DNA of 64,000 bases, from positions 16,092 through 80,091 of the forward strand of contig JBFWMB010000006.1 of assembly GCA_050251815.1 (NCBI GenBank), given 5' to 3'. The stretch is from Salinivirgaceae bacterium (GTDB lineage: Bacteria; Bacteroidota; Bacteroidia; Bacteroidales; SZUA-534). The number at the start of each line of letters is the position of its first letter. Positions within the stretch are counted from its first letter, which is position 1. A program made the position numbers and the translations under genes. Of this stretch, positions 1 through 20,978 are shown piece by piece. The notes beneath the pieces were generated by a model. The model saw nothing but the letters and a program-made list of their open reading frames with translations. It was not told where the DNA came from and ran no database searches.

Positions 1-131
1 TTTGCCACTATAACTTATTTTGGTGCGAAAATGTTGTGGCGAATTACAATTAATTACCAGCTAATCATCTTGGTTTCCCAACAGCGTCTTATTGGGCACA
101 GTCTCATTGTACCGACACTACTTTTGTTCTC

Positions 132-395
132 AAAATTAAAACAGATACTTGAGTAAATCAATTTAGGTAAGTACCCAAATTAAAACAGGTACGTACCTAA
201 ATCAAATCAGGTACTTGAGTAAATTGAATCAGGTACGTACCGGAATGAAAAAAGATCCCGATGTAAATTGAATTAGGTACGTACCTAAATTAAAATGGGT
301 ACGTACCTGAATCAAAACAGGTACGTACCTGAATTAAAAAAGGTCCCGATGTAAATGAAAATGGGTAAGTACCTAAATAAAAACAACTGCTTAAG
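132..395. repeat. Tandem array 1: 12 units of exactly 22 bp (A-rich 12-nt spacer plus 10-nt core, GGTACGTACC palindrome or variants)
   Basis: Cores start at 144, 166, 188, 210, 232, 254, 276, 298, 320, 342, 364 and 386, a constant 22-bp step with no indels. Perfect GGTACGTACC at 188, 232, 276, 298, 320. GGTAAGTACC at 166, 364. GRTCCCGATG at 254, 342. GRTACTTGAG at 144, 210. Confidence 0.9.
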
Positions 396-409
396 TAATT
401 TAAAATTGC

Positions 410-417
410 TATTTTTG
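410..417 (+). promoter_or_regulatory. Candidate Bacteroidota -7 box (TATTTTTG, matches TAnnTTTG) for the regulator gene
   Basis: The motif sits 44 nt upstream of the ATG at 461 and directly abuts the last unit of the 22-bp array. No clean -33 TTTG was found. Confidence 0.3.
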
Positions 418-460
418 ATCTAAATATGCTTTAAGCCTTTTGTCCTATTGTTTTTTTGAT

Positions 461-3442
461 ATGTACAGATATATAATACTTATCGGGTTAATTGTATTTG
501 GCGACTCAGCGCTCTGTCAAACCTATATGGACATAAATAGCAGCTATTCATTCACAACCATCAACAAAAATGATGGATTAGCTGATAACAACGTAAGTTG
601 TGTGTACAAAGACTCCGACGGATTTATTTGGTTCGGAACCCGAAATGGATTATGCCGCTTTGATGGTTTTGAATTTAGAGTGTATAGAAAAGGAGACCAT
701 TCGGGTTCGATTTCAGGAAACCGTATTTTGGATATCTGTGAAGATAAACAGGGGAATTTATGGGTGGGTACATATAACGATGGGCTTAACAAGTTTGACA
801 AAAAACAGGAATCGTTTACCCATTATAACGAAAAACACGGCATTGGCAATCGTATAAATCGAATAAAAACACTCACCGACGGAAAAGTCTGGGTTTGTTC
901 AAATCTTGGATTGGCGTATTATCAACCCAATACAAATCAGTTTTTCACCTTTCAAACCAGCAATGAGGCTGGTGCAACCTTACTCTCAAACCACATCTAC
1001 GATATTACCGAAACGGCTGATGGTTCAATTTATATTGCTCCTGAAGTTAATGAAATACAACGACTGAATATTTCCACAAATACCTTTGAAACAATACCTT
1101 ATACCAGACATCCCGAACTACAAAACAATTATAACAAACATATTATTGAAGGGAGTGACGGGCTATTGTGGATTTCAGCCAGTTATCATGGATTGTGTTC
1201 CTATAACCCTGAAACAGGGCACTCAGAACTGTACACAAAAGAAACAAAAAATCTATCAACCAACGTTTTAATGGGTCCTATGGCTATCGATAATTCAGGA
1301 AATATATGGATATGCACGGAGGGTGATGGAATTAATATATTTAACCCCACCACAAAAACCTATCAGCAATTAAAACACAACAAGAATAATCCAGAAGCAT
1401 TAAATTCTGATCATACGTACACCATATATTTTGATGACAATAGCATTGCCTGGATAGGAACCTACGATAAAGGTGTAAACAAAAGCGACCCCTACCAGCA
1501 AAAATTTCATGGTTCGCTTTTCCAATCCAACGATTTGAACGTCTTAAGTGGGTTTTCGGTGCTGGACATTTATGAAGATTCAAAAAAACGCGTTTGGTTT
1601 GGTACCGATGGCAATGGTTTGTATTGTTTTGAAAAAGGAACTCAGCCCAAAAGGGTTATGTACCAAAGCGAACTTGCCCAAAAAGGATTGACCTCAAACA
1701 TAATTACAGCCATTAGCGAAGACCCGTTTGGCAACCTGCTTATTGGCACCTATGCCGGGGGGTTGCATGTATTTAATCCTGAAACAGAAGTTTCACAAAG
1801 CTATTTGAGCGAAAACATCAAAACATCCGGGTTATCGTCGTCGAACATTTGGGAAATTTTAACCGATAGCAAAAAAAGAATCTGGCTGGGATTATTGGGA
1901 ACCGGGGTCGATGAATTTATCTGCGATAGTGGTAAGTTCATTAATCATGGTCCTTCATCGTCCGATAACAACAAAATCGAATTTCCAAATATCATGGTAA
2001 TTCTTGAAGATTACGATGGGGATCTTTGGTTTGGTTCTGAGGGAAAAGGCCTTTTTATTCTTGATAATCAAACCAGAAAAATCCAGCGAATCCCTTACGA
2101 TTCAGTACACAATATAACAACCGAAGGAATAATTAAATGCCTGTTACAGGATCAATGGGGTCATTTATGGATTGGTACCGAAGATGCCGGATTGTTTACC
2201 TTCGACAAAAGGACCAAACAAATTTCCCGCGTGGGAGAAAATGAAGGCCTATTAACGGTGTCGATACAGAATTTGCAGGAAGATAATTTGGGAAATCTTT
2301 GGATTGGCACATCGAACGGACTTTACCGGTATAACCCAAAAACCGAAGCTTTTAATCACTTTGTTACTGATGATGGCCTAACAAGCAATGAGTTTAATCA
2401 GGACGCCATGATAAAACTGAGCGACGGACGCTTAATTGTTGGCACCAGAAATGGAGCCGATATTATTACTCCCGAAAAAATATATTTAAACCAAATTCTT
2501 CCGAAAATTGTATTTACCCGCTTAACCATCCTCAATACCGAAATCCATCCAAAAACAAAGATTAATAAAAGGGTAATTACAAACACCAGTATTACCCATC
2601 TAAAGGAATTGGAATTAAACTGGAAAGATAAAATATTCACCATTGAATTTGCCGCCCTGAATTTTACCCTGCCGCATAAATGCGAATACAAATACCGTTT
2701 AGACGGTTTTGACGAAGATTGGGTACATACCAATGCAAATAGAAGAATAGCAAGCTATTCAAATTTAAAACCTGGAAAATACCATTTTAGGGTAATGGCC
2801 TCCAATAACGATGGAAAATGGGGTAATAACGAATCGTCATTAATTATTACAGTTAAACCCCCTTTTTGGAATACCTTGGTTTTTAAATTATTTGTTGGTT
2901 TAATCTTGCTAGCACTAAGCTATGTTGTATACAAATATCGCATAAATGTTCATAAAGAACGGTTTCTGCAAAAGCAGATTGAACAGGAAAACAAAATTAT
3001 TGCCTTAGAAAAGGAAAAACTAGAATCAGAGCTTAAAAAACTTGCATTTAGTGTAATTAACAAGAACAAACTATTAATTGAACAAAAAAACAAACTGCTT
3101 ACCTTGTCGAATAAGGCTCGGGTAAGTGTTAAAGAGGGTCTTCATAAAATTGTAGAAAGCATTGATGAAGACTTAAATGAAGAAAAAGACTGGGAAACAA
3201 TTGAACCCCAAATTGATAAAGCTTATAATCAATTTGTCACAAAATTAAAGGAACGTCATCCCGATTTAACCGCATCAGAACTTCGTATTGCTGCCTACAT
3301 ACGAATGAATCTTTCCACCAAAGAAATTTGCGAGTTCATGAACAAAACCCAACGGGCGGTTGAAAACGATAGGTACCGATTAAGAAAAAAAATTGGGCTT
3401 GAATCGAACGATTCAATTCAAAACTACCTGCTAAAACTTTAA
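461..3442 (+). CDS. Membrane-anchored sensor/regulator: periplasmic beta-propeller repeats, Y_Y_Y domain, TM helix, coiled coil and LuxR/GerE-type HTH
   Basis: The ORF runs 440..3442; ATG at 461 is preferred over the TTG at 440. It has many W(I/V/F)GT propeller-blade motifs (FIWFGTRNGL, LWVGTYNDGL, LWIGTEDAGL, LWIGTSNGL) and a YKYRLDGFDEDW triple-tyrosine-type region. One TM helix (LVFKLFVGLILLALSYVVYKY) is followed by a C-terminal HTH (LTASELRIAAYIRMNLSTKEICEFMNKTQRAVENDRYRLRKKIG). No HisKA, HATPase or REC motifs were seen. Confidence 0.85.
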   Translation: MYRYIILIGLIVFGDSALCQTYMDINSSYSFTTINKNDGLADNNVSCVYKDSDGFIWFGTRNGLCRFDGFEFRVYRKGDHSGSISGNRILDICEDKQGNLWVGTYNDGLNKFDKKQESFTHYNEKHGIGNRINRIKTLTDGKVWVCSNLGLAYYQPNTNQFFTFQTSNEAGATLLSNHIYDITETADGSIYIAPEVNEIQRLNISTNTFETIPYTRHPELQNNYNKHIIEGSDGLLWISASYHGLCSYNPETGHSELYTKETKNLSTNVLMGPMAIDNSGNIWICTEGDGINIFNPTTKTYQQLKHNKNNPEALNSDHTYTIYFDDNSIAWIGTYDKGVNKSDPYQQKFHGSLFQSNDLNVLSGFSVLDIYEDSKKRVWFGTDGNGLYCFEKGTQPKRVMYQSELAQKGLTSNIITAISEDPFGNLLIGTYAGGLHVFNPETEVSQSYLSENIKTSGLSSSNIWEILTDSKKRIWLGLLGTGVDEFICDSGKFINHGPSSSDNNKIEFPNIMVILEDYDGDLWFGSEGKGLFILDNQTRKIQRIPYDSVHNITTEGIIKCLLQDQWGHLWIGTEDAGLFTFDKRTKQISRVGENEGLLTVSIQNLQEDNLGNLWIGTSNGLYRYNPKTEAFNHFVTDDGLTSNEFNQDAMIKLSDGRLIVGTRNGADIITPEKIYLNQILPKIVFTRLTILNTEIHPKTKINKRVITNTSITHLKELELNWKDKIFTIEFAALNFTLPHKCEYKYRLDGFDEDWVHTNANRRIASYSNLKPGKYHFRVMASNNDGKWGNNESSLIITVKPPFWNTLVFKLFVGLILLALSYVVYKYRINVHKERFLQKQIEQENKIIALEKEKLESELKKLAFSVINKNKLLIEQKNKLLTLSNKARVSVKEGLHKIVESIDEDLNEEKDWETIEPQIDKAYNQFVTKLKERHPDLTASELRIAAYIRMNLSTKEICEFMNKTQRAVENDRYRLRKKIGLESNDSIQNYLLKL

Positions 3443-3665
3443 ATGCCGGTTTATGTATTGTTCCTGGCATTAATAGCCATCAAATATTTTTATTATTCGC
3501 TGTTTTAATGCCTGTTATAATCCGTTGAGAGTTTTTAAGTACCCCCACTTTTTCGTAAGCGAAGTTTTAAGTATTACTAAATTGAGTAAGCCGTATTCAA
3601 TTGTTTAATTTAGATTTTCAAGGCAAAAAAAGAAATTGCGAAACAAACACATAAAACTTATTAAA

Positions 3666-5147
3666 ATGAAAAAGAAAAAAATTAACATTCTGGGATATTC
3701 TCTTTTGGCAGCTGTTTTTGCTCCAGGATGCAGCAATCAGGGTAATCAACAGCTTATAAACGAAACCGAAAATCAACGCAAACATGAGTTTTCAATCGTT
3801 ACTGCAGAACAATACCTCACAGCAAAAGACGGTAATGAACGATTGACTAAAATGGAACGACTAACCTTCGAAGCATTTGATCAACCCGACGAACATTTTG
3901 CAACCCTAATGGTCGACCCAAAAAAAACATTTCAAACCATTGAAGGTTTTGGTGGTGCACTTACCGATGCAACAGCTGAGACCCTAAATAAACTGTCGCC
4001 CGAAAATCAGGAAAAAATCTATACTGCTTATTTCGATAAAAATGAAGGCATCGGTTACAACTTATTCCGGACTCATATTAACAGTTGTGATTTCTCGAGC
4101 CAATCGTATGCCTACGCTGAAGTTGAAGGCGATGTGGAATTAAAACATTTCACCATTGAAAAAGACCTGCAATACCGAATTCCCTTAATTAAAGAAGCCC
4201 TTAAACGAACTGGCAGCGATTTTAAGCTTTTGGCCTCACCATGGAGTCCTCCGGCCTGGATGAAAACCAACCAGAACATGCTGCAGGGAGGTGAATTAAA
4301 ACCAGAATACTATCAAACCTGGGCTGATTATTTTGTTCGGTTTATCGAAGCCTATAGGGCTGAAGGAATCCCGGTATGGGCAGTAACAGTTCAAAACGAA
4401 CCCATGGCGGTTCAAACCTGGGAGTCGTGTATTTTTACCGCAGCTCAAGAACGCGATTTTGTAAAAAACAACTTAGGTCCTTCGTTCGTGAAAAACAAGT
4501 TGTCGGATGTTAAAATAATTGTTTGGGATCACAATCGGGGCATTATGTATCAGCGCGCATCAACGGTTTATGACGATCCGGAAGCAAAAAAATATGTTTG
4601 GGGAACCGGATTTCACTGGTATACCGGCGACCATTTTGAGAATGTAAAACAAGTAGCTGAAGCTTTTCCCGATAAGAAATTACTATTTACCGAAGGCTGT
4701 GTTTTTCCGTTTGATTACCAGAAACTTGATCAGTGGAGTTGGGGAGAACGTTATGGAGAGTCGATTATAAATGACCTAAACAACTCAGCAGTAGGTTGGA
4801 TTGACTGGAACATGGTGTTGGATGAAACAGGCGGGCCAAACCATGTGGCCAATTACTGCTATGCTCCGGTTATCGGAAATACAAAAACCGATGAAGTAAT
4901 TTTCATGAATTCATTTTATTATCTGGGGCACTTCTCCAAATTTATCCGCCCTGGAGCAAAACGTATTATCTGTTCAAGTAACTACGACGATTTAATGGCA
5001 ACAGCTGCAATAAATACCGATGGAAGCATTGTTGTAGTTGCTATGAATAAAACCGGGAACGAAATACCTTTCAAATTATGGATACAGGGAAAAGCGGTTC
5101 AATCACACTTACCGGCCCATGCCATGAAAACTATAATTGTCAAATAA
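3666..5147 (+). CDS. Glycoside hydrolase family 30 (glucosylceramidase-like) lipoprotein
   Basis: ORF 3636..5147; ATG at 3666 gives MKKKKINILGYSLLAAVFAPGC with a lipobox. GH30 motifs present: EGFGGALTDA, ASPWSPPAWMKTN, VTVQNEP (acid/base Glu), LLFTEGC (nucleophile Glu). Confidence 0.85.
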   Translation: MKKKKINILGYSLLAAVFAPGCSNQGNQQLINETENQRKHEFSIVTAEQYLTAKDGNERLTKMERLTFEAFDQPDEHFATLMVDPKKTFQTIEGFGGALTDATAETLNKLSPENQEKIYTAYFDKNEGIGYNLFRTHINSCDFSSQSYAYAEVEGDVELKHFTIEKDLQYRIPLIKEALKRTGSDFKLLASPWSPPAWMKTNQNMLQGGELKPEYYQTWADYFVRFIEAYRAEGIPVWAVTVQNEPMAVQTWESCIFTAAQERDFVKNNLGPSFVKNKLSDVKIIVWDHNRGIMYQRASTVYDDPEAKKYVWGTGFHWYTGDHFENVKQVAEAFPDKKLLFTEGCVFPFDYQKLDQWSWGERYGESIINDLNNSAVGWIDWNMVLDETGGPNHVANYCYAPVIGNTKTDEVIFMNSFYYLGHFSKFIRPGAKRIICSSNYDDLMATAAINTDGSIVVVAMNKTGNEIPFKLWIQGKAVQSHLPAHAMKTIIVK

Positions 5148-5267
5148 TACCAAATATTGATGTACGAAAGGTTTACAAAGGTATTTATTTTAATTCCTGT
5201 GGAGTTGTATACTGCCTAAAGGAAGCAAAACCATACTATCTCATTTTATACATCTCATAATTATAAT

Positions 5268-5303
5268 AAAAGCCGTAAAGGAAAAATTCCGATACGGCTT
5301 TTT
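5268..5303. terminator. Bidirectional hairpin terminator between the convergent GH30 genes
   Basis: AAAAGCCGTA...TACGGCTTTT forms an 8-10 bp stem flanked by an A-run and a T-run. Confidence 0.55.
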
Positions 5304-5342
5304 AATTAACCTAACTTTAATTATGAAAATTCTTTATTCCTT

Positions 5343-6794
5343 TTACTCCCAAACATAAGTGGCTACCGATTCCTTTTCAAGCGATACAAGCACTCCCTTA
5401 TTTCTGTGATTAATGGTAAATGTTTGTGGCATATTGCCCTTATTTAATACAATAAGTACAATTTTCCCGTCTGGTGTTTTATAGGCAACATTTGGCAGGT
5501 TATCGGGCATATTTGTCGAAATACGCACAGAACCGGGTACCACAAATTTTGATGCATGGGCCATTATGTAATAGGCAACATTACGGCTTACCCGGTTGCC
5601 AACAGTAATAGCCCCCAAACAATTGGTGCAACCTCCGTTTGTATGAGGTAAATAACTTGGATCAGAAGCCAGGTTCCATTCCAATACAACCTTACACCAA
5701 TTTCGTGCAGCCCCAACAACCAGGTTTTCAATATGCCATTTTAAATCCCCTCCAAAATTACTTGGTCCCCCAACCCATTGCTCAGTAAAATAAATATTTT
5801 TGTCGGGATGCGCTGCATGAACCTTTGACAGAGCATCAATACTTCCTCCATACAAGTGAAATGCAGAACCGTCGATGTATTGCCTTGCTTCCTGATCGTT
5901 TAAAATAGAAATTGGATAATCGGTTCTATCCGCATTATGATCGTAAACCACGATTTTAGTTGCCAGGTTGTTTTCAGTAAAAGCGGGTCCCAGATGATTC
6001 TTTACAAAATCCAATTGCTGAACGGCACTCATTAACATGCTCGGATTATTTCCTCCATATAAGGGCTCATTTTGAACCGTAATAGCGTCCAAAGTGATGT
6101 CGTGCGCCTGCATAGCCTGAATATATTTTACAAAATATTGGGCATATACTGCATAATACTCTGGCAACAACTCACCCCCAACAAAGCTTTTGTTTGTTTT
6201 CATCCAGGTTGGAGCGGTCCAGGGCGAGCCCATTAGTTTTATGTTGGGATTAATTGCAAGTATTTGTTTCAGTAGGGGAATTAAATCAAGTTCATCTTTT
6301 TCCAGGCTGAACGAATTTAATTCAGGATCGGTTTCTCCTAAAGGTAATTCACAATAAGTAAATTCTTCGCTGCTTAAATCGGAAGCACCAATACTGAGTC
6401 GCAAATAACTTATTCCCACCGCATTTTGCTCCGTACCAAAAAGCTCCTGCAAGAGGGCTTGTTTTACGGGTTCATCGAGTGTATTAATCAATTCAGCACT
6501 ACCTCCGGTTAAAGTAAACCCAAAACCATCCATAGTTTGGTATTCTAAAGCATCATTAACCTCCACACTTACAGCGGCTTCAGTTAAGGTTGAAAAGTTT
6601 AATACAGTGTGCTGTTTTTGAAACAATACTTTTTGATCTCCCTGGGTCAACCAAAAACTTATATCCGATTCGGTTTGGGGCAGCGAATCCTGAACATCAA
6701 CAGGTACATTCGTATCAGAACATCCTGGTGTTCCAGAAAATAATACTGCCATAATAATAGTAAGTAGCATGTAAAACGATATTTTTTTTTGCAT
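5343..6794 (-). CDS. Glycoside hydrolase family 30 lipoprotein (beta-1,6-glucanase-like subgroup suspected)
   Basis: The 483-aa ORF has signal plus lipobox (LFSGTPGCSD). GH30 motifs: MDGFGFTLTGGSA, MGSPWTAPTWMKTN, ITVQNEP, IYFTEQW. Confidence 0.8.
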   Translation of the reverse strand: MQKKISFYMLLTIIMAVLFSGTPGCSDTNVPVDVQDSLPQTESDISFWLTQGDQKVLFQKQHTVLNFSTLTEAAVSVEVNDALEYQTMDGFGFTLTGGSAELINTLDEPVKQALLQELFGTEQNAVGISYLRLSIGASDLSSEEFTYCELPLGETDPELNSFSLEKDELDLIPLLKQILAINPNIKLMGSPWTAPTWMKTNKSFVGGELLPEYYAVYAQYFVKYIQAMQAHDITLDAITVQNEPLYGGNNPSMLMSAVQQLDFVKNHLGPAFTENNLATKIVVYDHNADRTDYPISILNDQEARQYIDGSAFHLYGGSIDALSKVHAAHPDKNIYFTEQWVGGPSNFGGDLKWHIENLVVGAARNWCKVVLEWNLASDPSYLPHTNGGCTNCLGAITVGNRVSRNVAYYIMAHASKFVVPGSVRISTNMPDNLPNVAYKTPDGKIVLIVLNKGNMPQTFTINHRNKGVLVSLEKESVATYVWE

Positions 6795-6805
6795 CAGTAA
6801 GTTAT

Positions 6806-8281
6806 TTAATATCCTGAATTTTGTATAAGCTTGGCATTTTTATCCAATTCGGCTTGTGGAATAGGCCAAAGTAAACGATTTTCATTTAATTGATAACCCA
6901 ATAAAATTCCATCCTGATCTGTAACCCCATTTATTACTTCAATAGCTCTGCCCGTGCGTTTCAGGTCGAACCACCGATGACCTTCAAAAGCCAATTCCAA
7001 CCGTCGTTCCTTTTCAATGGCAAGCCGCATATCGTCCTGGGTTTCTGCCGGAGTATCTGGCAGGTCAACTCTTTTTCTGATTTGATTTACCAATGCTGCT
7101 GCACCACTAACATTACCTTGCTCGTTAAGCGCTTCAGCCTTTAAAAGGATTATGTCGGCCAGCCGAAGAAAAATATAATTTTGTGGACTGGGACTGCTAT
7201 AAATTCGGTATTTATAAATAAATGGATAAGTTGTTTGGGGCCAATGAGAATCACTCCACTTGCCTGAAACATCCATAAAAATAATAGAAGCAGCTTTTCG
7301 GATAACATCATTTTCCTGATCATAAGCCCGTACCAAATCATTTGAAGGAATATTAAACTTTTTCCAATCGAACCCGATAAACATACTTGCTCCCCAGTTA
7401 CCACTCGACGAAGTGCCCTCATAATTTATTTCAAAAATAGCTTCTGAAGAGTTTTCATTCTCGTTATTCCATAAATCTTCGAAATTTGGTACTAAGCTAT
7501 AGCCTCCGTTAATCACGGCATCGCAATAATATTCTACTTTAACCCAATCTTTAGGCTCCATGGTAGCATAAACTTTTGCCAGCAGGGCATTTACAAAACC
7601 TGTGGTAACATAGCCCTTATTTATTGCATTGGTGCGCACCAAAGGCAAGGCGAATTCCAAATCAGCAATTATTTGGGCATAAACTTCCTCTTTTGCTTTT
7701 CGAGGAGGAAACAACAACGGATAGATTTCGGGCAATAACTCAGCACTAATGGTTGTAACCTCTTTCAGTTGAAGGGGTACGTCGCCCCATAATTGTACCA
7801 ATTGAAAATAAATATACGCCCGGATAGCTGAAGCCTCTGCCTTAATCTGCTTTTTATCAAATTCTGTTAAGGTGGCATCGGGTACTGCCTCGGCATTATT
7901 AATTACCAGGTTTGCTTTTCCGATGGTACTATACAAATAAGCCCAATCGCGGCTTACATTGCTATTGGTAGCATCAATGTTATAAGCATCAATCTGAAAG
8001 TTTGCCGGATTATCGGCGCCGGCATAGGCATCATCCGATTGAGCATCCCCATTTACAAAATAGTCAAGCTCAAAGTATTCGTTTCTAAAATCAGCATAAA
8101 CGCCAGCTAATGCAGCTTCCAACTCGCTGGCCGAATGGTACACCAAGGTATCGGTTTGTTCTACTTCCTCGGCTACACTTTGTGAGGATGGTCTTAATTC
8201 AAGAAAATCTTCGCATGATAGGAGCATCAATCCAAACACCGGAACAAATAGCCCGCCATATATTATCTTTCTCATATTCAT
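6806..8281 (-). CDS. susD: SusD/RagB family nutrient-binding outer-membrane lipoprotein
   Basis: The 491-aa ORF has lipobox LLSCEDFLE. It lies immediately downstream of the SusC-like gene, with a typical SusD C-terminus (RWFDLKRTGRA, ...QNSGY). Confidence 0.9.
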   Translation of the reverse strand: MNMRKIIYGGLFVPVFGLMLLSCEDFLELRPSSQSVAEEVEQTDTLVYHSASELEAALAGVYADFRNEYFELDYFVNGDAQSDDAYAGADNPANFQIDAYNIDATNSNVSRDWAYLYSTIGKANLVINNAEAVPDATLTEFDKKQIKAEASAIRAYIYFQLVQLWGDVPLQLKEVTTISAELLPEIYPLLFPPRKAKEEVYAQIIADLEFALPLVRTNAINKGYVTTGFVNALLAKVYATMEPKDWVKVEYYCDAVINGGYSLVPNFEDLWNNENENSSEAIFEINYEGTSSSGNWGASMFIGFDWKKFNIPSNDLVRAYDQENDVIRKAASIIFMDVSGKWSDSHWPQTTYPFIYKYRIYSSPSPQNYIFLRLADIILLKAEALNEQGNVSGAAALVNQIRKRVDLPDTPAETQDDMRLAIEKERRLELAFEGHRWFDLKRTGRAIEVINGVTDQDGILLGYQLNENRLLWPIPQAELDKNAKLIQNSGY

Positions 8282-8287
8282 AGCATA

Positions 8288-11215
8288 TTAAAATTCAACG
8301 TTTAATCCCACAATAAATGTTCGGGCCTGTGGATAGGTTCCATAATCAATACCCTGTACACTTGCACTGTTTCCAAAAGCATTCACTTCGGGATCGTATC
8401 CGGAATACTTCGTAAAAGTGAGCAAATTTTGCCCTGTAAAATAAGCGGTTAACTTCTTAATTGCTTTAACGTTATCTATCACTCGGTACGATAAGGTAAG
8501 TGATTTTAGGCGTAAATACGATCCATCTTCAATAAAACGGGAAGAATTCCAAACATTATAAACACTTCCACTGCTTTTGGGAATGGCCCGGGGTATATCA
8601 GTAGCTGTGTTTTCAGGTGTCCAACGGCGCAACACGGCCAAAGACTGATTCTTACTGTCGAACATTCCTTCTAAATCGATCCGGGTGGCATTATAGATAT
8701 CGTTTCCATAACTGCCTTGAAAGAAAAAAGACAAATCGAACCGCTTGTACGTAAGTGTATTGGTTAAACCAAAAATAAAATCAGGTTGTGCATTACCAAT
8801 TATTGTTCTGTCGCCGGGATCGTTAATCCCGTTATTGTTTACATCCCTATAAATCATATCGCCGGTTTCAGAATCTACTCCATCGGCAATGTATCCAAAA
8901 AATGAACCTAAAGATTCCCCTTCCTTTAGTCGAATTATGTCCTGATTGTTGCTATAAATGCGTCCAAAATCATACGATTCTACATAATCGAGAGCAACAA
9001 CCTTATTTCTATTCATCGACAGATTAAAATTTGTTATCCAGTTAAAATCCTCAGAACTCATATTAATGGTTCGAAGGTTTAATTCCAGACCTTTATTGTC
9101 AATCTGCCCGGCATTGGTTAATATCCTGGTTATGGGCAAGGTGCTGGGCAATTGCACATTCAAAAGAACATCGCTTGTTTTTTTAAGGTAGGCATCCAAA
9201 TTAATGGCAATTCGTGAGTTGAACATTGAAATATCGATGCCTACCCCGGTTTGTGCCGAAGTCTCCCATTTAAGGTCAGGGTTACCATAAGTAACCTGAG
9301 AGGAACTTGGTCCTGAAAGCGGATCGGTTGGGGTTCTTCGGTAATAGTTTACCAAACCATAACGGGCGTAATTTGCTATTCCTTCCTGGTTTCCATTAAC
9401 TCCCCAACCTCCCCGTAATTTTAAATCGTTTATAAAACGAACATTCTGCATAAAAGGCTCGGCAGAAATACGCCACCCAACCGAAAAAGCAGGCATGGTT
9501 CCCCAGTGTTGAGCTAGCTTTGATGAACCATCGCGACGAAGACTGGCTGATGCATAGTATTTGCTGTTAAAGTCGTAGGTAACCCTACCAAAAAAAGAGG
9601 TCAAAGACCATTCGTCTTTCGAGGTACTTCCTGAAATGGTATTGGCCGCATTAAGCGTTGTTACCTCAACATCAGTCGGAAAATCTGTTCCATACAAATA
9701 GGAATCGTGCCCGGTAAACTTTTGCATACTGGTACCAATAAGTGCATTGAGGTTATGGTTATTAAAAGCTTTCGTATAATCTACAGTATTCTCCAGCATC
9801 CATGATTGGCTCATGTATTTATCAGCCTGGCCAACCCCATTGTTATTCCGTCCGAAATTGGTCCGGAAGGGATCGAGATAATAATTCCACTGGTGGTTAT
9901 TAATCTCTACTCCAAATCGGTTTTTATAAAACAGTCCATCACTAATTCTTGCCTCGAGCATGATATTACCAAACAGTTGTCGGTCGATGGCCTGTTGATC
10001 AGCACCTTCCATGTAGGCAACCGGGTTTTCCCAGGAAGCCTGAAAAGGATTCGTGTCGAACTGCCCGCTTCCATCGGGGTTATATACTCTTAGAAACGGA
10101 GGCGTATTAAGTGCAGCCATAATTACACCTCCCCTACCTGAACTGGCATTGTCGGGAGTATCTTCCGTTTTTATATTCAACAGGTTAACGCTTGATTTCA
10201 TTTTTAACCAGGGGCGTATCTGGTTGTCGAGATTATAGCGTACCGATATACGATCGAAGCGAGCTGGCCGAACAATACCTTTATTATTTAAATAATTTAA
10301 GGCAAGATAGTACTGCGATTTTTCATTCCCGTCGGAAAACGATAATTGATACGACTGGATTTTACCAGTACCAAATACCTCCTTGTTCCAATCGTTAAAA
10401 TAGGTATCTGTGGGATCCAGCTCTTCACCACGCTCCAGCATTAAATCACGGTATTGCTTGGTATTAAGAACCTCTATGGTTTTGCGGATGTTTGAGATTC
10501 CAAAATAGGTGCTAAAATTCAGTGCAGTTTGCCCTTTTTGAGCTCTCTTTGTAGTAATTATTACCACGCCATTGGCTGCTCTTGCACCATAAATAGATGA
10601 AGAGGAAGCATCTTTAAGGACTGACATCGACTCAATATCATTGGGGTCAATCCCTTTAATGTCTGTAGTAGGTAAACCATCAACCACATACAGTGGTTCA
10701 TTTCCGGCTTCAACCGATGTTGCACCTCTAACCCTTACGGATAGAGCCACGCCAGGTTTTCCCGAGGGTTGAATTACCTGTACCCCGGCAGCTTTACCCT
10801 GAAGAGCTTCAGCAGCAGAAACCATAGGGCGTTCCTTAATTTCATCCTCCCCAACAATTGAAACAGCAGTAGTTAAATCCTTTTTTCGCTGGGTTCCATA
10901 CCCAATAACCACTACTTCATCAAGATCTTTGATATCGGATTGCAATACCACAGAAATAACCGACTGGTTTCCAATTTCTATCTCCTGAGTTATAAAACCA
11001 ATAAAACTGAAAACCAGGATCCCCTTATCTGCTTTAATGGAGAATTTTCCGTCTAAATCGGTTATGGTTCCTGTGGTAGTCCCTTTTAATACTACGGTTA
11101 CCCCTGGAATGCCGACTCCTTCGCTATCGGACACGGAACCGGTAATTTGTCGCTCCTGGGCAGTTCCAGCCAGCGAAAGTCCGGCAAGTATGAAAAATAA
11201 AATTAGCTTTTGCAT
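8288..11215 (-). CDS. susC: SusC-type TonB-dependent outer-membrane transporter
   Basis: ORF 8288..11248; ATG at 11215 gives MQKLILFFILAGLSLAGTAQ. A CarboxypepD_reg-like N-terminus (ITGSVSDSEGVGIPGVTVVLKGTTTGTITDLDGKFSI) is followed by a plug (VVIGYGTQRKKDLT). The C-terminus ends in the terminal Phe of a TBDT barrel. Confidence 0.92.
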   Translation of the reverse strand: MQKLILFFILAGLSLAGTAQERQITGSVSDSEGVGIPGVTVVLKGTTTGTITDLDGKFSIKADKGILVFSFIGFITQEIEIGNQSVISVVLQSDIKDLDEVVVIGYGTQRKKDLTTAVSIVGEDEIKERPMVSAAEALQGKAAGVQVIQPSGKPGVALSVRVRGATSVEAGNEPLYVVDGLPTTDIKGIDPNDIESMSVLKDASSSSIYGARAANGVVIITTKRAQKGQTALNFSTYFGISNIRKTIEVLNTKQYRDLMLERGEELDPTDTYFNDWNKEVFGTGKIQSYQLSFSDGNEKSQYYLALNYLNNKGIVRPARFDRISVRYNLDNQIRPWLKMKSSVNLLNIKTEDTPDNASSGRGGVIMAALNTPPFLRVYNPDGSGQFDTNPFQASWENPVAYMEGADQQAIDRQLFGNIMLEARISDGLFYKNRFGVEINNHQWNYYLDPFRTNFGRNNNGVGQADKYMSQSWMLENTVDYTKAFNNHNLNALIGTSMQKFTGHDSYLYGTDFPTDVEVTTLNAANTISGSTSKDEWSLTSFFGRVTYDFNSKYYASASLRRDGSSKLAQHWGTMPAFSVGWRISAEPFMQNVRFINDLKLRGGWGVNGNQEGIANYARYGLVNYYRRTPTDPLSGPSSSQVTYGNPDLKWETSAQTGVGIDISMFNSRIAINLDAYLKKTSDVLLNVQLPSTLPITRILTNAGQIDNKGLELNLRTINMSSEDFNWITNFNLSMNRNKVVALDYVESYDFGRIYSNNQDIIRLKEGESLGSFFGYIADGVDSETGDMIYRDVNNNGINDPGDRTIIGNAQPDFIFGLTNTLTYKRFDLSFFFQGSYGNDIYNATRIDLEGMFDSKNQSLAVLRRWTPENTATDIPRAIPKSSGSVYNVWNSSRFIEDGSYLRLKSLTLSYRVIDNVKAIKKLTAYFTGQNLLTFTKYSGYDPEVNAFGNSASVQGIDYGTYPQARTFIVGLNVEF

Positions 11216-11404
11216 TGGTACATATTTAAAGCGGTTGTATATCAACAATTCTCAAGGCAATTAAACCCCGAACCCACAAAAAGAAACATAACTGATTAGC
11301 GTTTAATCGAATTAAGTTTCAGGCAATTAATAATAAAACTGTTTGTTAAACTGATGCACGAATACGATTCTATCAGTTTGATAATTTGACTAAAAGCCTT
11401 GCTT

Positions 11405-11454
11405 TTTAAATTATAAAAATTCAAGATCAGAAGTCATGCTTCTGATCTTGAATT
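11405..11454 (-). terminator. Rho-independent terminator after the PKD-domain gene
   Basis: A perfect 16-bp stem (11418-11433 with 11439-11454, AATTCAAGATCAGAAG/CTTCTGATCTTGAATT) has a 5-nt loop and is followed on the minus strand by a TTTTATAATTT tail. Confidence 0.8.
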
Positions 11455-11464
11455 GCAACATGAA

Positions 11465-13228
11465 TTATCGTTCCAAAATGGTTGACCACGAAGATCCACC
11501 AGTATGATCGGCTGAAAGATCGACTGTAACAAATAAGTATTCCTTTGTTCCGGAATTAGCGTATCCCATTACTTCATACTGGTTTGTTAAATTTCCACCA
11601 TTAGGAGCATTGGCACCATCGGAATTTTCGCCCCCATAGTATCCTTTATAAAAACCCAGGAATGCGGCCATATCACCCCCATTGGTAAGTATAATCTTAG
11701 CGCGCTCGCTTTCTGTAGCAGGAATAAACTCATAACTATGAGTTGCCGAACCAAAAGCAGCTCCATTTCCACTGGCTGCTATCTCATCATCGGAAATACA
11801 ACCATTGGGACTTCCAAAATAACCATCGTTGCGAGCACTTCCATTGGTCTCATAGGTGTAAACTCCACCGGCTGCAAAGGTAAATTCATCATCAACCATA
11901 CACGACCAATCATCAGCACCAGTGCCTTCACCAGTAAGGAAACTTTTGGGAACACTCCACCATTCACTACTTCCCATGGCAGGACCCACAAATACTGATT
12001 TCTCGCTTATTGAAACTTTCCAGGCATTTCCCTGCAAGATAGCATCGGTTAACGCAGTTTCCGAAGCAAAGAAAACGGTTTGAAAGGTAGCATTGGTGCC
12101 CAGGGCATTGGTTGCCGTTAGGGTAATAGTATAAAACCCATCATTAGCATAGGTATGACTTGCATCGGCTGATGTAGCCGTAGTTCCATCGCCAAAGTCC
12201 CAGACAAATGAATCGGAATACTCGCTGGTATTGGTACAGGTAATAGTTTTGCCATCAGTGGTCATGGTAAAAGACGCTTTGGGCTGGTTTCCAGGGATAG
12301 GAGGTTCATCGTTGGGATTGTCGTAATGTACAAACACAAAACGCCAGTAGCCTCCTGGGCTTGCATCATCTGGATTAAATTTGTATTCAGCTTCAACCAC
12401 CAGGGTATCGGTTGTTCCATCGTAAAGTGATATTAAATTATAGGTAACTGATTCCTGAGGAACCTTAACTTCAACATCGGTGGCCACTTTTGATAAACCC
12501 AAAAAAGCTCCCAATCCAATAACTTTCAGGGTAGGATTTGTACCGGTTGTCAGTTCGAAGGTGTGGTTTCCACTTCCCCAGGCTGAAAGATCTTCACCAT
12601 TAGGTCCTAGCATTGCATCGGTAGATGCACAGGTATTTGCCGGTTCAAATACTCCACCTTCGGCCCAATAATCGCCATTGGCATTAAACACCATAGAACC
12701 ATCACGGCCAAAGGTCCATTCATCGTTTAGCATACAGGGGCGATTAGCTAACTCATCATTGTCTCTTCCAACTGCCCACCAAATCGTAGAGCGATCGTAT
12801 GGTCCAACTTCCAAAGGATAAACACCTCCACTAACATCGCGTAAGAGCTTCCATGTCTTCGAAGTCTCGCCGACTAGTTTTGTCAGCTCACCATTTGGAT
12901 CGGCAATCAACACATTAGTACTATAACTGTCGGTAGCTCCTCCAGCTGAGGTTGCTGTTAGTGTAACGGTATATTCCCCAACCGAAGTATAGGTATGTAC
13001 CGGATTCTCCTCTGTGGAAGTCTGGGAATCATCACCAAAATTCCAAACCAGGCTTGCATAGTTCTGCGATGCATTTAAAAAAGACACCTTTTTATAGTCG
13101 GTATCATCCAGTTGAAAGGTAAAACTGGCAATCACATCATCTTCCGTTGTATCATCTTTACAAGATGCCAGCTGCAAAACGGCCAGTAAAAACAATACGC
13201 TTTTCCCAATTCTAAAGTAGTTCTTCAT
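11465..13228 (-). CDS. PKD-domain surface lipoprotein (probable surface glycan-binding protein of the PUL)
   Basis: The 587-aa ORF has lipobox LQLASCKDD. Two PKD-type domains are present (WNFGDDSQTSTEENPVHTYTSVGEYTVTLTAT and WDFGDGTTATSADASHTYANDGFYTITLTAT). Confidence 0.8.
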   Translation of the reverse strand: MKNYFRIGKSVLFLLAVLQLASCKDDTTEDDVIASFTFQLDDTDYKKVSFLNASQNYASLVWNFGDDSQTSTEENPVHTYTSVGEYTVTLTATSAGGATDSYSTNVLIADPNGELTKLVGETSKTWKLLRDVSGGVYPLEVGPYDRSTIWWAVGRDNDELANRPCMLNDEWTFGRDGSMVFNANGDYWAEGGVFEPANTCASTDAMLGPNGEDLSAWGSGNHTFELTTGTNPTLKVIGLGAFLGLSKVATDVEVKVPQESVTYNLISLYDGTTDTLVVEAEYKFNPDDASPGGYWRFVFVHYDNPNDEPPIPGNQPKASFTMTTDGKTITCTNTSEYSDSFVWDFGDGTTATSADASHTYANDGFYTITLTATNALGTNATFQTVFFASETALTDAILQGNAWKVSISEKSVFVGPAMGSSEWWSVPKSFLTGEGTGADDWSCMVDDEFTFAAGGVYTYETNGSARNDGYFGSPNGCISDDEIAASGNGAAFGSATHSYEFIPATESERAKIILTNGGDMAAFLGFYKGYYGGENSDGANAPNGGNLTNQYEVMGYANSGTKEYLFVTVDLSADHTGGSSWSTILER

Positions 13229-13585
13229 TTTAATTTGGTTTAAGTTAACACTCTTTGGCTTTTATTAAAAAACCCATGCTCACAGCAAAGCTGTTAAAGC
13301 ACGAATTCAAAGGTAAGCGCTGGTGCAATCGTTTGTATTTATTCTGGCTACTTAAAACCTCATGACCCCCTTAAAAGATGGTACTCAAAACCTCTCAAAA
13401 GCTAAAATAGTCAGTACTACCTTACTACCCGGGAAATAGAATTTTCAGCGTTAGAACAATGAATCAAGGTCATTGGTTCCTTACTTTTTTATGCATTTAA
13501 AGTTGTGAAAGCCTGCTTTGTTAAAACAAAACCCTCAATTACATTAAAGCCAGGAGTTTTTAGAAAGCATTTTTACTGTAAGGAC

Positions 13586-13783
13586 CAAATCAAAACAGTT
13601 ACTTAGGTTAATTGAATCAGGTACGTACCGGAATGAAAAAAGATCCCGATGTAAATTGAATTAGGTACGTACCTGAATTAAAAAAGGTCCCGATGTAAAT
13701 GAAAACTGGTACGTACCAAAATGAAATCAGGTAAGTACCGAAATCAAATTTGGTGCGTACCTAAATTAAAATGGGTACTTAGG
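13586..13783. repeat. Tandem array 2: 9 units of the same 22-bp repeat as 132-395, same orientation
   Basis: Cores at 13598, 13620, 13642, 13664, 13686, 13708, 13730, 13752 and 13774, a constant 22-bp step. Perfect GGTACGTACC at 13620, 13664, 13708. A 65-bp block (13610-13674) is identical to 222-286, and a 31-bp block (13675-13705) is identical to 330-360. Confidence 0.9.
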
Positions 13784-13891
13784 TAAATTACCATAAGTCC
13801 CCAGGAGTTTTAAAAAGGGTTTCCGGCCTGGATTATGCCTCTTTAGAAAAATAAAATTCGAACTATTGGAAAAAATTCAATTTAAACGCAT

Positions 13892-13916
13892 AAAAAAAGC
13901 CCTCTAAAAAGAGAGC
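13892..13916 (-). terminator. Terminator after groEL
   Basis: On the minus strand, a GCTCTC/GAGGGC stem (one G-U pair) is followed by a T7 run, just downstream of the groEL stop. Confidence 0.6.
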
Positions 13917-13941
13917 TTTTATATGTGTTTCAAAAGGAATA

Positions 13942-15576
<1,635 letters not shown>

Positions 15577-15605
15577 TCAAATTGTTTATTAGTTACAAAA
15601 ATTGA

Positions 15606-15884
15606 TTAGAAAATGTAAAGTATGTCGCTGTGAGCTATTAACAGGTATTTTTCACCGTCAATAAGCAGCTCAGTGCCGGCATATTTTCCGTACATTACCT
15701 TGTCGCCTTCTTTAACCTCAATATTTTGGTCTTTGAGTGCTACCCCGGTTAAAACAACGGTACCGTGTAAGGGAGCATCCTGAGCTGAGTCGGGAATGTA
15801 AATTCCGCCAGCAGTTTTTGCTTCGGCTTCTGAAGGATGTACAAGTACTTTTCCTGCAATAACTTTACCATTCAATTTTGCCAT
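15606..15884 (-). CDS. groS: Co-chaperonin GroES
   Basis: The 92-aa ORF lies upstream of groEL. Its length and layout match GroES, including the glycine-rich mobile-loop region (TAGGIYIPDS). Confidence 0.97.
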   Translation of the reverse strand: MAKLNGKVIAGKVLVHPSEAEAKTAGGIYIPDSAQDAPLHGTVVLTGVALKDQNIEVKEGDKVMYGKYAGTELLIDGEKYLLIAHSDILYIF

Positions 15885-16067
15885 TTTTTGTCTATTTTAA
15901 GTTTAACATCTTATATTTAATTCAACAGGCGGCATGAGTCATAATTTGTGCCAAAGACAAATATGCACTAAACAAACGACAGAATTACCGTTTGGTGGCA
16001 CTTCCGCTATTTAATAATCTTTACTGAGTGAGGCTATGGTACAGAAAGAAAGGTTTTTGGTGGCTAT

Positions 16068-16110
16068 TAAAAAAAATGTCAGCCTGAGTGACAAGCTGAC
16101 ATTTTTTTTG
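16068..16110 (-). terminator. Terminator after secG (symmetrical hairpin)
   Basis: An ATGTCAGC/GCTGACAT 8-bp stem (16076-16083 with 16095-16102) is flanked by A8 and T8 runs. Confidence 0.7.
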
Positions 16111-16124
16111 ATTGCTAAAAAAGC

Positions 16125-16469
16125 TTATTCTTCAGTTTCGTCGCTTTCGGTAGGAGCTGTTAAGGGAAAATTACCAGGAAGTGCTGATGGATCCTGGGCG
16201 GCATCAATTTGTTCCTGCATCATGGAACGAGGATCTTCACCACCTTCGCGCTCAATAAATGCAGCAGCCATAATACTTAAAAACAACAATGCTCCTGCAA
16301 GCGTCCAGGTTGCTTTCTCTAAAAAATCGGTAGTTTTCCGAACGCCCATTACCTGATTCGACGACGAAAAGTTTGCAGCAAGTCCGCCACCTTTTGAATT
16401 TTGAACCAAAACGATTAAAATCAAGAGAAGACAAACAATTAAGATTAGTACTGAAATTGCGTAAAACAT
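16125..16469 (-). CDS. secG: Preprotein translocase subunit SecG
   Basis: The 114-aa ORF has two TM helices. The motif LIVLVQNSKGGGLAANF is typical of SecG. Confidence 0.9.
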   Translation of the reverse strand: MFYAISVLILIVCLLLILIVLVQNSKGGGLAANFSSSNQVMGVRKTTDFLEKATWTLAGALLFLSIMAAAFIEREGGEDPRSMMQEQIDAAQDPSALPGNFPLTAPTESDETEE

Positions 16470-16479
16470 CGTTTCTTAT

Positions 16480-17301
16480 TTATTGATTGTTAATAATTTG
16501 TTTTATTTTCTGAATTTGACCGGCAAAGTAACTATTTTTTTCCGGATATTTCAAACTTAATTTTTCGTAAGCATGAATGGCTTTATCGTAAAAGCCCTGT
16601 TTAATGTATATTTTAGCCAGGGTATCGGTAATCATGTCGGGGTTTAGCTGTGGTTCGGATTCCGGTGTTGGAGACTCTTCTGCTATTTTGTTTTCGGGTT
16701 TTGGAATTATTTTGGGTTGTTCTAAAATAAAACTGTCGATAAGCGCACTGCGCCGGTTTTGTTCAGGTTTAGCTGTATCGCCTTGTTTCTCAGATTCCGG
16801 TTTGTTTGCTTTTTTTCTTTTAAATATATTTTTGAAATCTTCCAAATCAACCTGATCGCCCACGTCGAAAAAAGTTCCGGCCTGCGCGGCTCCCGACATA
16901 ATAAGCAACTCCAGTTCATCGTTTTTGTCGTAAGTATCCTGTTTTTTATTCGATGGAGAGAGGCTATCGAAATCGGTAAGTTCCGACAATTCAGTAAAGT
17001 CGATAGTTGCACTCTCGTTATAAGTTGCAGGTTGATGCACCTCAACTTCTTCATTTATAGGAAGCAGCACCCGTTTATCGAGCAGGTAAAAAAGACGGCT
17101 TCGATTTGTGATCCAAACGGCATTGGTTCTTAATTCCCTTTCATAACTAATGGTTCCCTGATTGTTGAGGTTTTTCAACAACAACATCCGGGCCGACTGA
17201 AAGTAAGGATACTCTTCAACAACGGCCTGCAAATCAGACAAACTTCGGTCGTCGAGCAATTCAGGATGAGCCAGATAGGTATAAAAGGTTTCCTTATTCA
17301 T
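16480..17301 (-). CDS. Hypothetical protein with a C-terminal TPR-like motif
   Basis: The 273-aa ORF has a C-terminal LAKIYIKQGFYDKAIHAYEKLSLKYPEKNSYF motif. It sits in the conserved position between lptE and secG. Confidence 0.6.
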   Translation of the reverse strand: MNKETFYTYLAHPELLDDRSLSDLQAVVEEYPYFQSARMLLLKNLNNQGTISYERELRTNAVWITNRSRLFYLLDKRVLLPINEEVEVHQPATYNESATIDFTELSELTDFDSLSPSNKKQDTYDKNDELELLIMSGAAQAGTFFDVGDQVDLEDFKNIFKRKKANKPESEKQGDTAKPEQNRRSALIDSFILEQPKIIPKPENKIAEESPTPESEPQLNPDMITDTLAKIYIKQGFYDKAIHAYEKLSLKYPEKNSYFAGQIQKIKQIINNQ

Positions 17302-17307
17302 AAGTAG

Positions 17308-17817
17308 CTACCAATTCACAACGGCTTTGTTAAAAATATCATCGACCAATTGTTCCACAATTACTTCTATCAGGGAATCTTCTACGTCCTGCAAATTCTG
17401 GTCACTGCTGTAATCTTCGTATCTTGAAAACTGGGTGTCGAAATTTGCTTTCGGATCTTTTTCGTTTACAAACTTAACTTTTATGGTTATGGTCAGGCGG
17501 TTTTGTGCTGCCTGGTCGGTTCCGGCCTGAATAGCCATGGGTTTGGTGTTGTAATCAACAATAGTGCCCTCGAACTGCAAATGGCCGTTTTGCTGAACCA
17601 GCTGCAGGCTGGTTTGAGTCATAAACTTATCTTTCAGGGCTTCGGTTAGAACATTACTCAACATGGGGTTTACCAGCGCTGCCATGTTTGGAAACTCCGC
17701 AATTGAAACCGTTTCGGTTCCCGGAGGAATACTGGCTCCGGTAAAAGAATATTTTATACTACAAGCCGTGTTTAAAATTAAACTCAGCGTTATTATAATG
17801 CTTACTGTGTGACGCAT
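17308..17817 (-). CDS. lptE: LptE-family LPS-assembly lipoprotein
   Basis: ORF 17308..17847; ATG at 17817 gives MRHTVSIIITLSLILNTACS with a lipobox. Size, and synteny with the sigma-54 activator and secG, are typical of Bacteroidota LptE. Confidence 0.65.
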   Translation of the reverse strand: MRHTVSIIITLSLILNTACSIKYSFTGASIPPGTETVSIAEFPNMAALVNPMLSNVLTEALKDKFMTQTSLQLVQQNGHLQFEGTIVDYNTKPMAIQAGTDQAAQNRLTITIKVKFVNEKDPKANFDTQFSRYEDYSSDQNLQDVEDSLIEVIVEQLVDDIFNKAVVNW

Positions 17818-17830
17818 GATTTTCTTCTTT

Positions 17831-19072: not shown

Positions 19073-19318
19073 AATATTTATTACTATATGTATTTTTTGA
19101 TTTAACTGCCTGAAAAGAAAACCAAACACCAAGTAAATCGTCTGTGTTTTGGCATCAGTAACAAGCTTAACTTACAATAAAAACAAAACCAACACGATTT
19201 GTTTTAAAAGCCTGACAAAATTACATATTTTTAGGAAACTCTAACCTCAGAAAATCGATAATTGAGGCAAAAACAAGGGTAAAACCTCATATTTTAACCT
19301 TAAGTTAAAAAAAGAACA

Positions 19319-19392
19319 TAAAAAAACCTGCCATTACAAGCTAAGGGTTTTGAAATTGGGCTTCAAAACCCAGTAGGCTATATTGGCAGGTT
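19319..19392 (-). terminator. Nested long-hairpin terminator
   Basis: An outer AACCTGCCA/TGGCAGGTT stem encloses an inner GGGTTTTGAA/TTCAAAACCC stem. A T-run follows on the minus strand, downstream of the stop at 19397. Confidence 0.65.
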
Positions 19393-19396
19393 GGTT

Positions 19397-20203: not shown

Positions 20204-20445
20204 AATCGGGTTATTAAAAGATTTCAAGTAAATGTAAAAAAAATGTTTGATAAATGCATTACTCCAAATAAAAAAGCAAATTATTCAGAGCGAAGCCATA
20301 GCAAAAACCGCTCATAAAATACCTTATAAGCCACAAAAAACCCAAAACCTAAGGCTTTAAATTCTATTATAAGTCAATGAGAAAGCTACTCTTGGAATAA
20401 TTAACAAAAATTGTTGATAATAATTGTGGTTTAAAATATAAATTG

Positions 20446-20453
20446 TATTTTTG
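20446..20453 (+). promoter_or_regulatory. Candidate -7 box (TATTTTTG) for the rplM-rpsI operon
   Basis: The motif matches TAnnTTTG about 65 nt upstream of the GTG start. Only a partial -33 (ATTG) is present. Confidence 0.35.
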
Positions 20454-20973: not shown

Positions 20974-20978
20974 AAGAA

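Follow-up and report, generated by a model that had tools for sequence, protein, structure and literature searches.

The locus

We examined a 64,000-nucleotide stretch of DNA from a Salinivirgaceae bacterium (GenBank assembly GCA_050251815.1, contig JBFWMB010000006.1, positions 16,092 to 80,091 of the forward strand), hereafter the window. It contains a polysaccharide utilization locus (PUL) of beta-1,6-glucan type, bracketed by the two arrays of 22-bp tandem repeats that are the subject of this work: array 1, upstream of the regulator gene bguR, and array 2, between the PUL and groEL. An earlier reading made from the letters alone (the sequence-only reading) had described a regulator-GH30 arm on the plus strand and a PKD-SusC-SusD-GH30 arm on the minus strand. 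It had proposed the arrays either as shared operators of both arms or as direct repeats through which the whole PUL could be excised, duplicated or acquired as a cassette. The gene layout was correct and is given below, where L006 is a related Salinivirgaceae metagenome-assembled genome (MAG).

440/461-3442, plus strand: regulator (bguR), with Reg_prop propellers, Y_Y_Y, a transmembrane helix and a weak C-terminal GerE/LuxR-type helix-turn-helix
3636-5147, plus strand: GH30 (GH30a)
5343-6794, minus strand: GH30 (GH30b)
6806-8281, minus strand: SusD
8288-11248, minus strand: SusC
11465-13228, minus strand: PKD
3636-13228: structural genes of the beta-1,6-glucan-type PUL, namely GH30 (plus) and GH30, SusD, SusC and PKD (minus)
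13892-13924, minus strand: intrinsic terminator of groEL (hairpin and T-run), between groEL and array 2, kept in L006
13942-15573, minus strand: groEL, immediately beyond array 2

The minus-strand GH30 is a BT3312-like endo-beta-1,6-glucanase. By its domain architecture, the predicted regulator is of the BguR type. This type was described in 2026 (bioRxiv 10.64898/2026.01.10.698779) as a one-component activator of beta-glucan PULs that spans the membrane, and its binding motif was predicted to lie between bguR and the first structural gene. Just outside the window, upstream of array 1, lies a gene for a cyclic-nucleotide (cNMP)-binding regulator whose transcription points away from the array. 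The wider neighbourhood consists of this cNMP-binding regulator, the PUL, groESL, secG and ribosomal protein genes.

Structure of the two arrays

Tandem Repeats Finder located period-22 arrays in the window at 133-385 (11.5 copies) and 13619-13778, together with higher-order periods of 88 and 44 bp. Read in register, the arrays and their shared parts are:

133-396, plus strand: array 1, 12 tandem 22-bp units in register, order C A A C A B A A A B A C
13587-13784, plus strand: array 2, 9 units, order C A B A B A A A C, orthologous to L006 1181-1356
13785-13806: degenerate unit directly after array 2
222-286 = 13610-13674, plus strand: 65-bp exact block, the longest direct-repeat substrate, offset 13,388 bp
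331-361 = 13675-13705, plus strand: 31-bp exact block, an identical pair in the window strain only

The type A unit reads rAATnrAAnnn followed by the 10-bp palindrome GGTACGTACC. Two variants, type B (GATCCCGATGT) and type C (GGTACTTGAGT-like), are without the palindrome, and C-type units sit at both ends of each array. Allowing at most one mismatch, GGTACGTACC occurs 15 times in the 64 kb (0.6 expected), and 12 of these 15 occurrences fall inside the two arrays. The units abut with no unique spacers between them, unlike those of a CRISPR (clustered regularly interspaced short palindromic repeats) array.

The in-register layout confirms that both arrays have the same orientation, and the 65-bp block is an exact match, both as first described. 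The 31 bp of the shorter block are also identical, but its coordinates had been one position off, and it is no general feature of the arrays, since it is missing in MAG GCA_964559525.1 and in the Logan assembly SRR13617028. The clean 44-bp deletion by which the arrays were said to differ holds for their central part; elsewhere, array 1 extends further to the left by three units (133-198), and the arrangement of the right-hand units differs. As a separate observation, a near-identical direct repeat of about 18 bp flanks array 2 (13549-13568, CCAGGAGTTTTTAGAAAG; 13801-13820, CCAGGAGTTTTAAAAAGG), and its left copy is absent in L006.

History of the arrays

L006 carries array 2 at the same PKD/groEL junction, with the unit order C A B A A A C C', which differs from that of the window by one 44-bp indel. 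Array 2 at the groEL/PUL junction predates the split between the window's lineage and L006. Together with L123, a second relative, these are three distinct lineages by nucleotide identity over the 5' part of PKD (window-L123 87%, window-L006 80%, L123-L006 87%). Divergence from L006 jumps at the PUL-proximal edge of array 2: four-fold degenerate sites are identical at a fraction of 0.42 in PKD against 0.71 in seven genes on the groEL side, and the roughly 150 bp adjoining the array (13433-13586) cannot be aligned to L006 at all. By this measure, array 2 goes with the conserved groEL flank.

Array 1 has a different history. The regulator of L123 is 81% identical to that of the window, and L123 shares the PUL and, beside it, the genes for Mg-chelatase, methyltransferase and the cNMP-binding regulator. 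The region between the cNMP-binding gene and the regulator measures 186 bp without an array in L123 versus 478 bp in the window's lineage. Two features of this region are:

133-401, no strand: array-1 insertion, about 269 bp relative to the empty site of L123
410-417, plus strand: TATTTTTG, which fits the Bacteroidota -7 consensus TAnnTTTG, lies 9 bp 3' of the array-1 insertion and is conserved in L123; a putative promoter element

The empty site reads ttttgttcacac|aaaattgttatttttgat in L123 and ttttgttctca[133-401]aaaattgctatttttgat in the window, with AAATT at both junctions. We read this junction by eye, as automatic alignments placed the gap poorly. The L123 contig stops 150 bp short of the array-2 position, so that the comparison with L123 concerns array 1 only. 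Arrays are also absent within 10 kb in L124 and L125 (regulator 80% identical), in L126-L130, L133 and L134 (57-64%) and in L217 (PKD 68%). The empty site shows array 1 as a recent insertion carried only by the window's lineage, beside the putative bguR promoter region. A Crp-like gene beside array 1 was considered as a partner of the array and rejected, since L123 has the gene without the array.

As to the source of array 1, its units 199-242 match L006 units 1181-1224 exactly, and array 2 of the window differs there. Since these units match L006 and not the window's own array 2, array 1 is a copy of an ancestral array-2-like sequence. It would have arisen by ectopic copying at AAATT microhomology, either by transposition or by templated repair. 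The blocks that the two arrays share resemble each other more closely than orthologous arrays do between two species. The arrays bracket the PUL by history and not by design: one is old, the other recently inserted.

The insertion could also be read as a MITE (miniature inverted-repeat transposable element) with an internal minisatellite, array 1 being a transposition with AAATT as target duplication. The clean insertion with AAATT at both junctions would fit, as would the intergenic site and the C-type units capping both array ends, and BrickBuilt offers a precedent (PMC4596501). But AAATT is simply the start of every unit, and the insert has no leader or tail segments and no convincing terminal inverted repeat (TIR), its ends (133-162 and 372-401) sharing only AAATTA/TAATTT. 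There is no transposase nearby, and the unit sequence is unrelated to BrickBuilt. Further array copies are lacking both in about 73 kb of this genome, beyond the two described, and in 8 kb of the L006 contig. We regard a MITE-like origin as improbable.

Strain variation and probable exchange between or within arrays

The window sequence is also present in the NCBI MAG GCA_964559525.1 and in two Logan assemblies, and its relatives are labelled Salinivirgaceae. Short-read contigs of the organism from NCBI and Logan (L118, L119, L120, L122, L131 and L132) all end inside array 1 or array 2. A Logan contig of SRR27751818 is identical to window 332-13639, which is exactly the unique sequence between the shared blocks. 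Short-read assemblies thus break at both ends of the PUL because of the arrays.

Between the window and the MAG we counted 18 single-nucleotide polymorphisms (SNPs) in 1-13442, one in 13805-25573 and none in array 1. Six fall in 13567-13804 (Poisson P about 4e-8), an excess that belongs to a wider cluster of 11 differences in 13171-13804. Array-2 positions 13674, 13679 and 13687 differ from the window both in the MAG GCA_964559525.1 and in Logan SRR13617028. There, unit 13675 is a copy of unit 13631, whereas the window's unit 13675 reproduces array-1 unit 331 exactly. This switch looks like a signature of gene conversion, within or between arrays and in either direction, with array 2 of the window as read from the window assembly alone. 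Exchange between or within the arrays therefore seems to occur.

The cis element shared by both arms

Phylogenetic footprinting, which took in the bguR-GH30a spacer of eight orthologous loci and the PKD upstream regions of the window and L006, returned two conserved direct-repeat boxes that form a pair, TGAGwGkTTTTrAGTAcc and, 32-33 bp further downstream, GArGTTTTrAGTA. The pair is present in all nine orthologous loci examined (L123, L124, L126, L128, L129, L133, L134, L006 and L217). Within the window it occurs twice:

3526-3578, plus strand: TGAGAGTTTTTAAGTACCCCC followed 32 bp on by AGCGAAGTTTTAAGTATTACT, upstream of GH30a; candidate BguR operator
13344-13397, minus strand: TGAGAGGTTTTGAGTACCATC followed 33 bp on by CATGAGGTTTTAAGTAGCCAG, upstream of PKD-SusC-SusD-GH30; array 2 is 190 bp away

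The string TTTTRAGTA is found six times in the 64 kb, and four of the six form these two pairs (3526/3558 on the plus strand, 13377/13344 on the minus strand). With a position weight matrix (PWM) built from 20 sites, the four boxes, at 17-29 bits, outscore all the rest of 128,000 positions. Neither array holds a site that scores above 0.5 bits (rank 217), which is background level.

The box pair is the cis element common to both PUL arms, bound presumably by BguR. Co-regulation of the two arms would then run through the pairs before GH30a and PKD. The arrays, proposed earlier as the shared operators, do not behave as such: within 10 kb of regulators orthologous to that of the window (81%, 80% and 57-64% identical) there is no array. 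At the nine orthologous loci it is the box pair, and not the arrays, that is conserved upstream of the genes to be regulated. The pairs at 3526-3578 and 13344-13397 are thus a concrete candidate operator for the new BguR class, found across loci whose regulators are 55-81% identical, and directly testable.

Next to the PKD boxes, a palindrome at 13324-13337 (TGCAATCGTTTGTA) fits the LacI-family operator consensus TGnAAnCGnTTnCA. It is also present in L006, L129, L133, L134 and L217, and its distance downstream of the BguR boxes is 10-70 bp in several orthologous loci. These sites hint at a second input of the repressor type.

The PUL as a proposed cassette

The sequence-only reading had agreed to drop the cassette if related genomes carried the PUL without flanking arrays. 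L123 and L124 carry it without array 1, L123 at the same chromosomal position, which contradicts acquisition of the PUL as a unit delimited by the arrays.

Along the locus, sliding-window identity between the window's lineage and L123 is a mosaic. It is 0.86-0.96 in the left flank, about 0.78 from bguR to GH30b, 0.94-0.99 over about 7.7-12.6 kb (the 5' part of SusD, SusC and most of PKD) and about 0.80 again beyond. Four-fold-site identities agree with it (SusC 0.87, PKD 0.79, bguR 0.47, Mg-chelatase 0.62). The tract of about 5 kb at 7.7-12.6 kb indicates a recent homologous exchange between lineages inside the PUL. Its ends lie inside SusD and PKD and not at the arrays, which counts against the arrays as cassette ends; yet the change in divergence from L006 does coincide with the left edge of array 2.

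Excision or duplication through the arrays fared somewhat better. They are true direct repeats with a 65-bp perfect block on either side of 13.4 kb, and on mechanistic grounds the 13,388-bp interval could plausibly undergo rare deletion or duplication of RecA type, as a by-product of the arrays. But no deletion form was seen: the assemblies retrieved contain no deletion or circular junction running from the cNMP gene to groEL through a hybrid array. No PUL-less relative that would offer an empty site for inspection was found either, and the GroEL-based metagenome scan gave only GroEL of at most 86% identity. A prediction of rare PUL loss, testable by polymerase chain reaction (PCR), follows from the arrays.

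Overall, we find it scarcely credible that the arrays serve as operators of the PUL regulator or as recombination ends for acquiring or excising a PUL cassette. Their placement in the same orientation upstream of both arms, the 65-bp perfect identity, the conversion-like strain polymorphism and the divergence change at the PUL-proximal edge of array 2 would all fit these readings. Against them stand orthologous PULs without arrays, the same chromosomal site without array 1 in L123, a box pair that accounts for co-regulation while the arrays score as background, and a recombination tract that ends inside genes. An attractive but wrong reading, in which repeat arrays are taken for PUL operators or cassette ends, is thereby removed. 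Empty-site comparison and phylogenetic footprinting show how such readings can be told apart.

The nature of the arrays

The arrays are probably paralogous copies of a lineage-specific, non-coding minisatellite with a palindrome-cored 22-bp unit, and not a regulatory or mobility device of the PUL. Such an array would grow and shrink by slippage or unequal exchange, with copy number changing in two-unit (44-bp) steps, and gene conversion within and between arrays would homogenise the units.

Several observations weigh against this minisatellite reading. The only two copies in about 73 kb both lie upstream of PUL arms in the same orientation. Array 2 is identical at 143 of 154 positions between the window and L006 (92.9%), with unit-specific spacer variants preserved, and this is higher than at four-fold degenerate sites of the seven flanking genes (70.6%, n=742; binomial P about 1e-11). 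It is also higher than in other intergenic DNA (83-90%; Fisher P = 0.025). Array units hold conserved positions outside the palindrome as well (AAT, AA), and their period equals two helical turns. In addition, 21-24-bp arrays with the same 10-bp palindrome stand, among the matches listed, in unrelated intergenic regions beside housekeeping genes. The constraint on array 2 exceeds what is expected of a neutral, unstable repeat, and we keep a cis function for array 2 as a minority possibility.

One form that such a function could take is a protein-binding platform, in which GGTACGTACC dimer sites recurring every two helical turns on the same DNA face are bound cooperatively by a host protein. 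As a boundary or insulator it could separate the very highly expressed groESL operon from the tightly controlled PUL, or it could serve as a landing pad; it would later have been duplicated upstream of bguR. The conservation of array 2 between species, above synonymous sites and slightly above other intergenic DNA, argues for it, as do the conserved core and spacer positions and the 22-bp phasing. So does the same palindrome in 21-24-bp arrays of several families and phyla, along with dispersed palindromes upstream of a parA gene in L026. But no candidate binding protein was found, array 1 is missing in every relative, B and C units are without the palindrome, predicted curvature is unremarkable and the other arrays adjoin unrelated housekeeping genes. 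The recurrence is moreover partly circular, since the search was seeded with the palindrome. We consider a binding platform unlikely, though worth keeping in mind.

The recurrence comes from a phylum-wide pattern scan seeded with GGTACGTACC, in which many matches are unrelated palindrome pairs. Among the matches listed, arrays with the same core occur in Prevotellaceae, Bacteroidaceae, Tannerella, Hymenobacteraceae, Planctomycetaceae, Verrucomicrobiales and Streptomyces, and 22 bp is the commonest spacing. The loci are:

L009, L030, L035 and L099: Planctomycetaceae
L020: Verrucomicrobiales
L053, L075, L025 and L023: Bacteroidota
L061: Streptomyces

Arrays with the GGTACGTACC core in planctomycete MAGs reach 13 units. 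We take the grouping of these distant arrays into one family as a lead, not as proof. Tandem arrays with periods of 15-44 bp are common in unselected Bacteroidota DNA, which fits the minisatellite reading: in 0.73 Mb, a sample drawn from the GroEL-based metagenome scan, we counted 21 distinct ones, or one in about every 35 kb, and one of the 21 has a 22-bp unit with a different palindrome. A metagenome pattern scan for two adjacent units gave 0 matches, and a scan of viral contigs only an unrelated 3-unit repeat of actinobacterial type. The literature search on the palindrome or on 22-bp Bacteroidota repeats returned nothing relevant.

Two further loci deserve mention. In the Acidobacteriota MAG L026, eight copies of an 18-22-bp palindrome (TTGTGGTACGTACCACAA) spread over 400 bp (1309-1740) directly upstream of a ParA-like gene; this cluster looks like a partition centromere or operator. 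In L013, a 22-bp array (5251-5450) has a core that drifts from GGTACGTACC to GGTGATCACC and then to GGTGGCCACC, palindromic throughout while its centre changes.

A broader proposal is that palindrome arrays with GGTACGTACC every 21-22 bp form a conserved, unrecognised class of chromosomal protein-binding site, either a boundary or insulator or a nucleoid-organising site, with array 2 under selection. We rate this lower still than the local platform, as a long shot. If it were true, the copy made upstream of bguR would leave the entire PUL enclosed by two such sites, for example in a loop or an insulated domain. Given that array 2 is unexpectedly well conserved, there is a small but real chance that it represents a new kind of cis element.

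Other tests of function were mostly negative. In Rfam, the arrays gave nothing at the gathering threshold and only chance-level matches at E<1. A sigma-70-type promoter scan found no enrichment in the arrays, and direct reading found no TAnnTTTG box inside the units. Intrinsic curvature was considered and set aside: in a wedge model with Bolshoy-Trifonov parameters, end-to-end over contour length is 0.93-0.99, ordinary or straighter than most 190-bp windows. A link to repetitive extragenic palindromes and their tyrosine transposases (REP/RAYT) was likewise rejected: the IS200/RAYT-like Y1 transposase gene in L134 (6292-6729), near an orthologous PUL, lies between hairpins of GGCTTTAGCC type that bear no relation to the 22-bp units.

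Single-strand folding of the arrays is strong (z -8 and -5) but degenerate; no single fold dominates, and L006 does not preserve the pairings. This folding bears on the idea that the arrays are orientation-specific tandem terminators, with minus-strand hairpins of 10-12 bp and U-rich spacers, so that array 2 would reinforce the groEL terminator and keep read-through out of the PUL. Two terminator-like sites do lie on the minus strand of array 1 (0.3 expected), and the transcribed strand runs from the groEL terminator straight into array 2. But array 2 itself has no terminator-like site, the hairpin loops are large and array 1 has no upstream minus-strand gene to terminate. Together with the unconserved folding, this makes a terminator role very improbable.

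Elsewhere in the window, a separate intergenic tandem array at 59833-60033 has a 41-bp period and about 4.5 copies, with a sequence unrelated to the 22-bp arrays. An Acido-Lenti-1 small RNA of Rfam matches at 61395-61441 on the plus strand, with 41 bits against a gathering threshold of 37.

Comparison with known systems

Bacterial variable-number tandem repeat (VNTR) or minisatellite loci evolve by slippage, unequal crossing-over and gene conversion. The arrays resemble them in their 44- and 88-bp higher-order periods, two-unit indels between species and clustered conversion-like changes between strains. They differ in that unit order and variants are unusually stable between species, with array 2 at 92.9% identity against 70.6% at four-fold sites.

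Plasmids carry comparable protein-binding arrays, such as the 22-bp iterons of R6K and the 43-bp repeats of F sopC, each with a palindrome. The likeness lies in tandem direct repeats in helical phase and, for sopC, also in a palindromic core per unit. Here, in contrast, the context is chromosomal and housekeeping, with no rep or par genes within 10 kb of the arrays, and blastn of array 1 found no similarity to plasmid or phage records.

BrickBuilt of Porphyromonas gingivalis has leader and tail segments, insertion-sequence-like TIRs and 19 dispersed copies (Klein et al. 2015, PMC4596501). Both systems belong to Bacteroidota and consist of spacer-less, head-to-tail repeats of about 22-23 nt in intergenic DNA, with variable copy number and assembly gaps. 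However, the BrickBuilt unit, AGAYCATARTATCCTCTCRTRTG, is unrelated to the rAATnrAAnnnGGTACGTACCn found here, and we found no leader, tail or TIR in the arrays, which are known in two copies 13 kb apart. They appear analogous to BrickBuilt in kind, unrelated in sequence and without MITE ends.

For the PUL itself, the closest parallel is the BguR system (bioRxiv 10.64898/2026.01.10.698779), with which it shares the predicted regulator architecture, a beta-glucan PUL and a conserved motif in the spacer that separates bguR from the first structural gene. The motif here is the TTTTrAGTA box pair and not the 22-bp arrays, and the setting is a GH30 (beta-1,6-glucanase-like) PUL in a Salinivirgaceae-like genome instead of a flavobacterial laminarin PUL.

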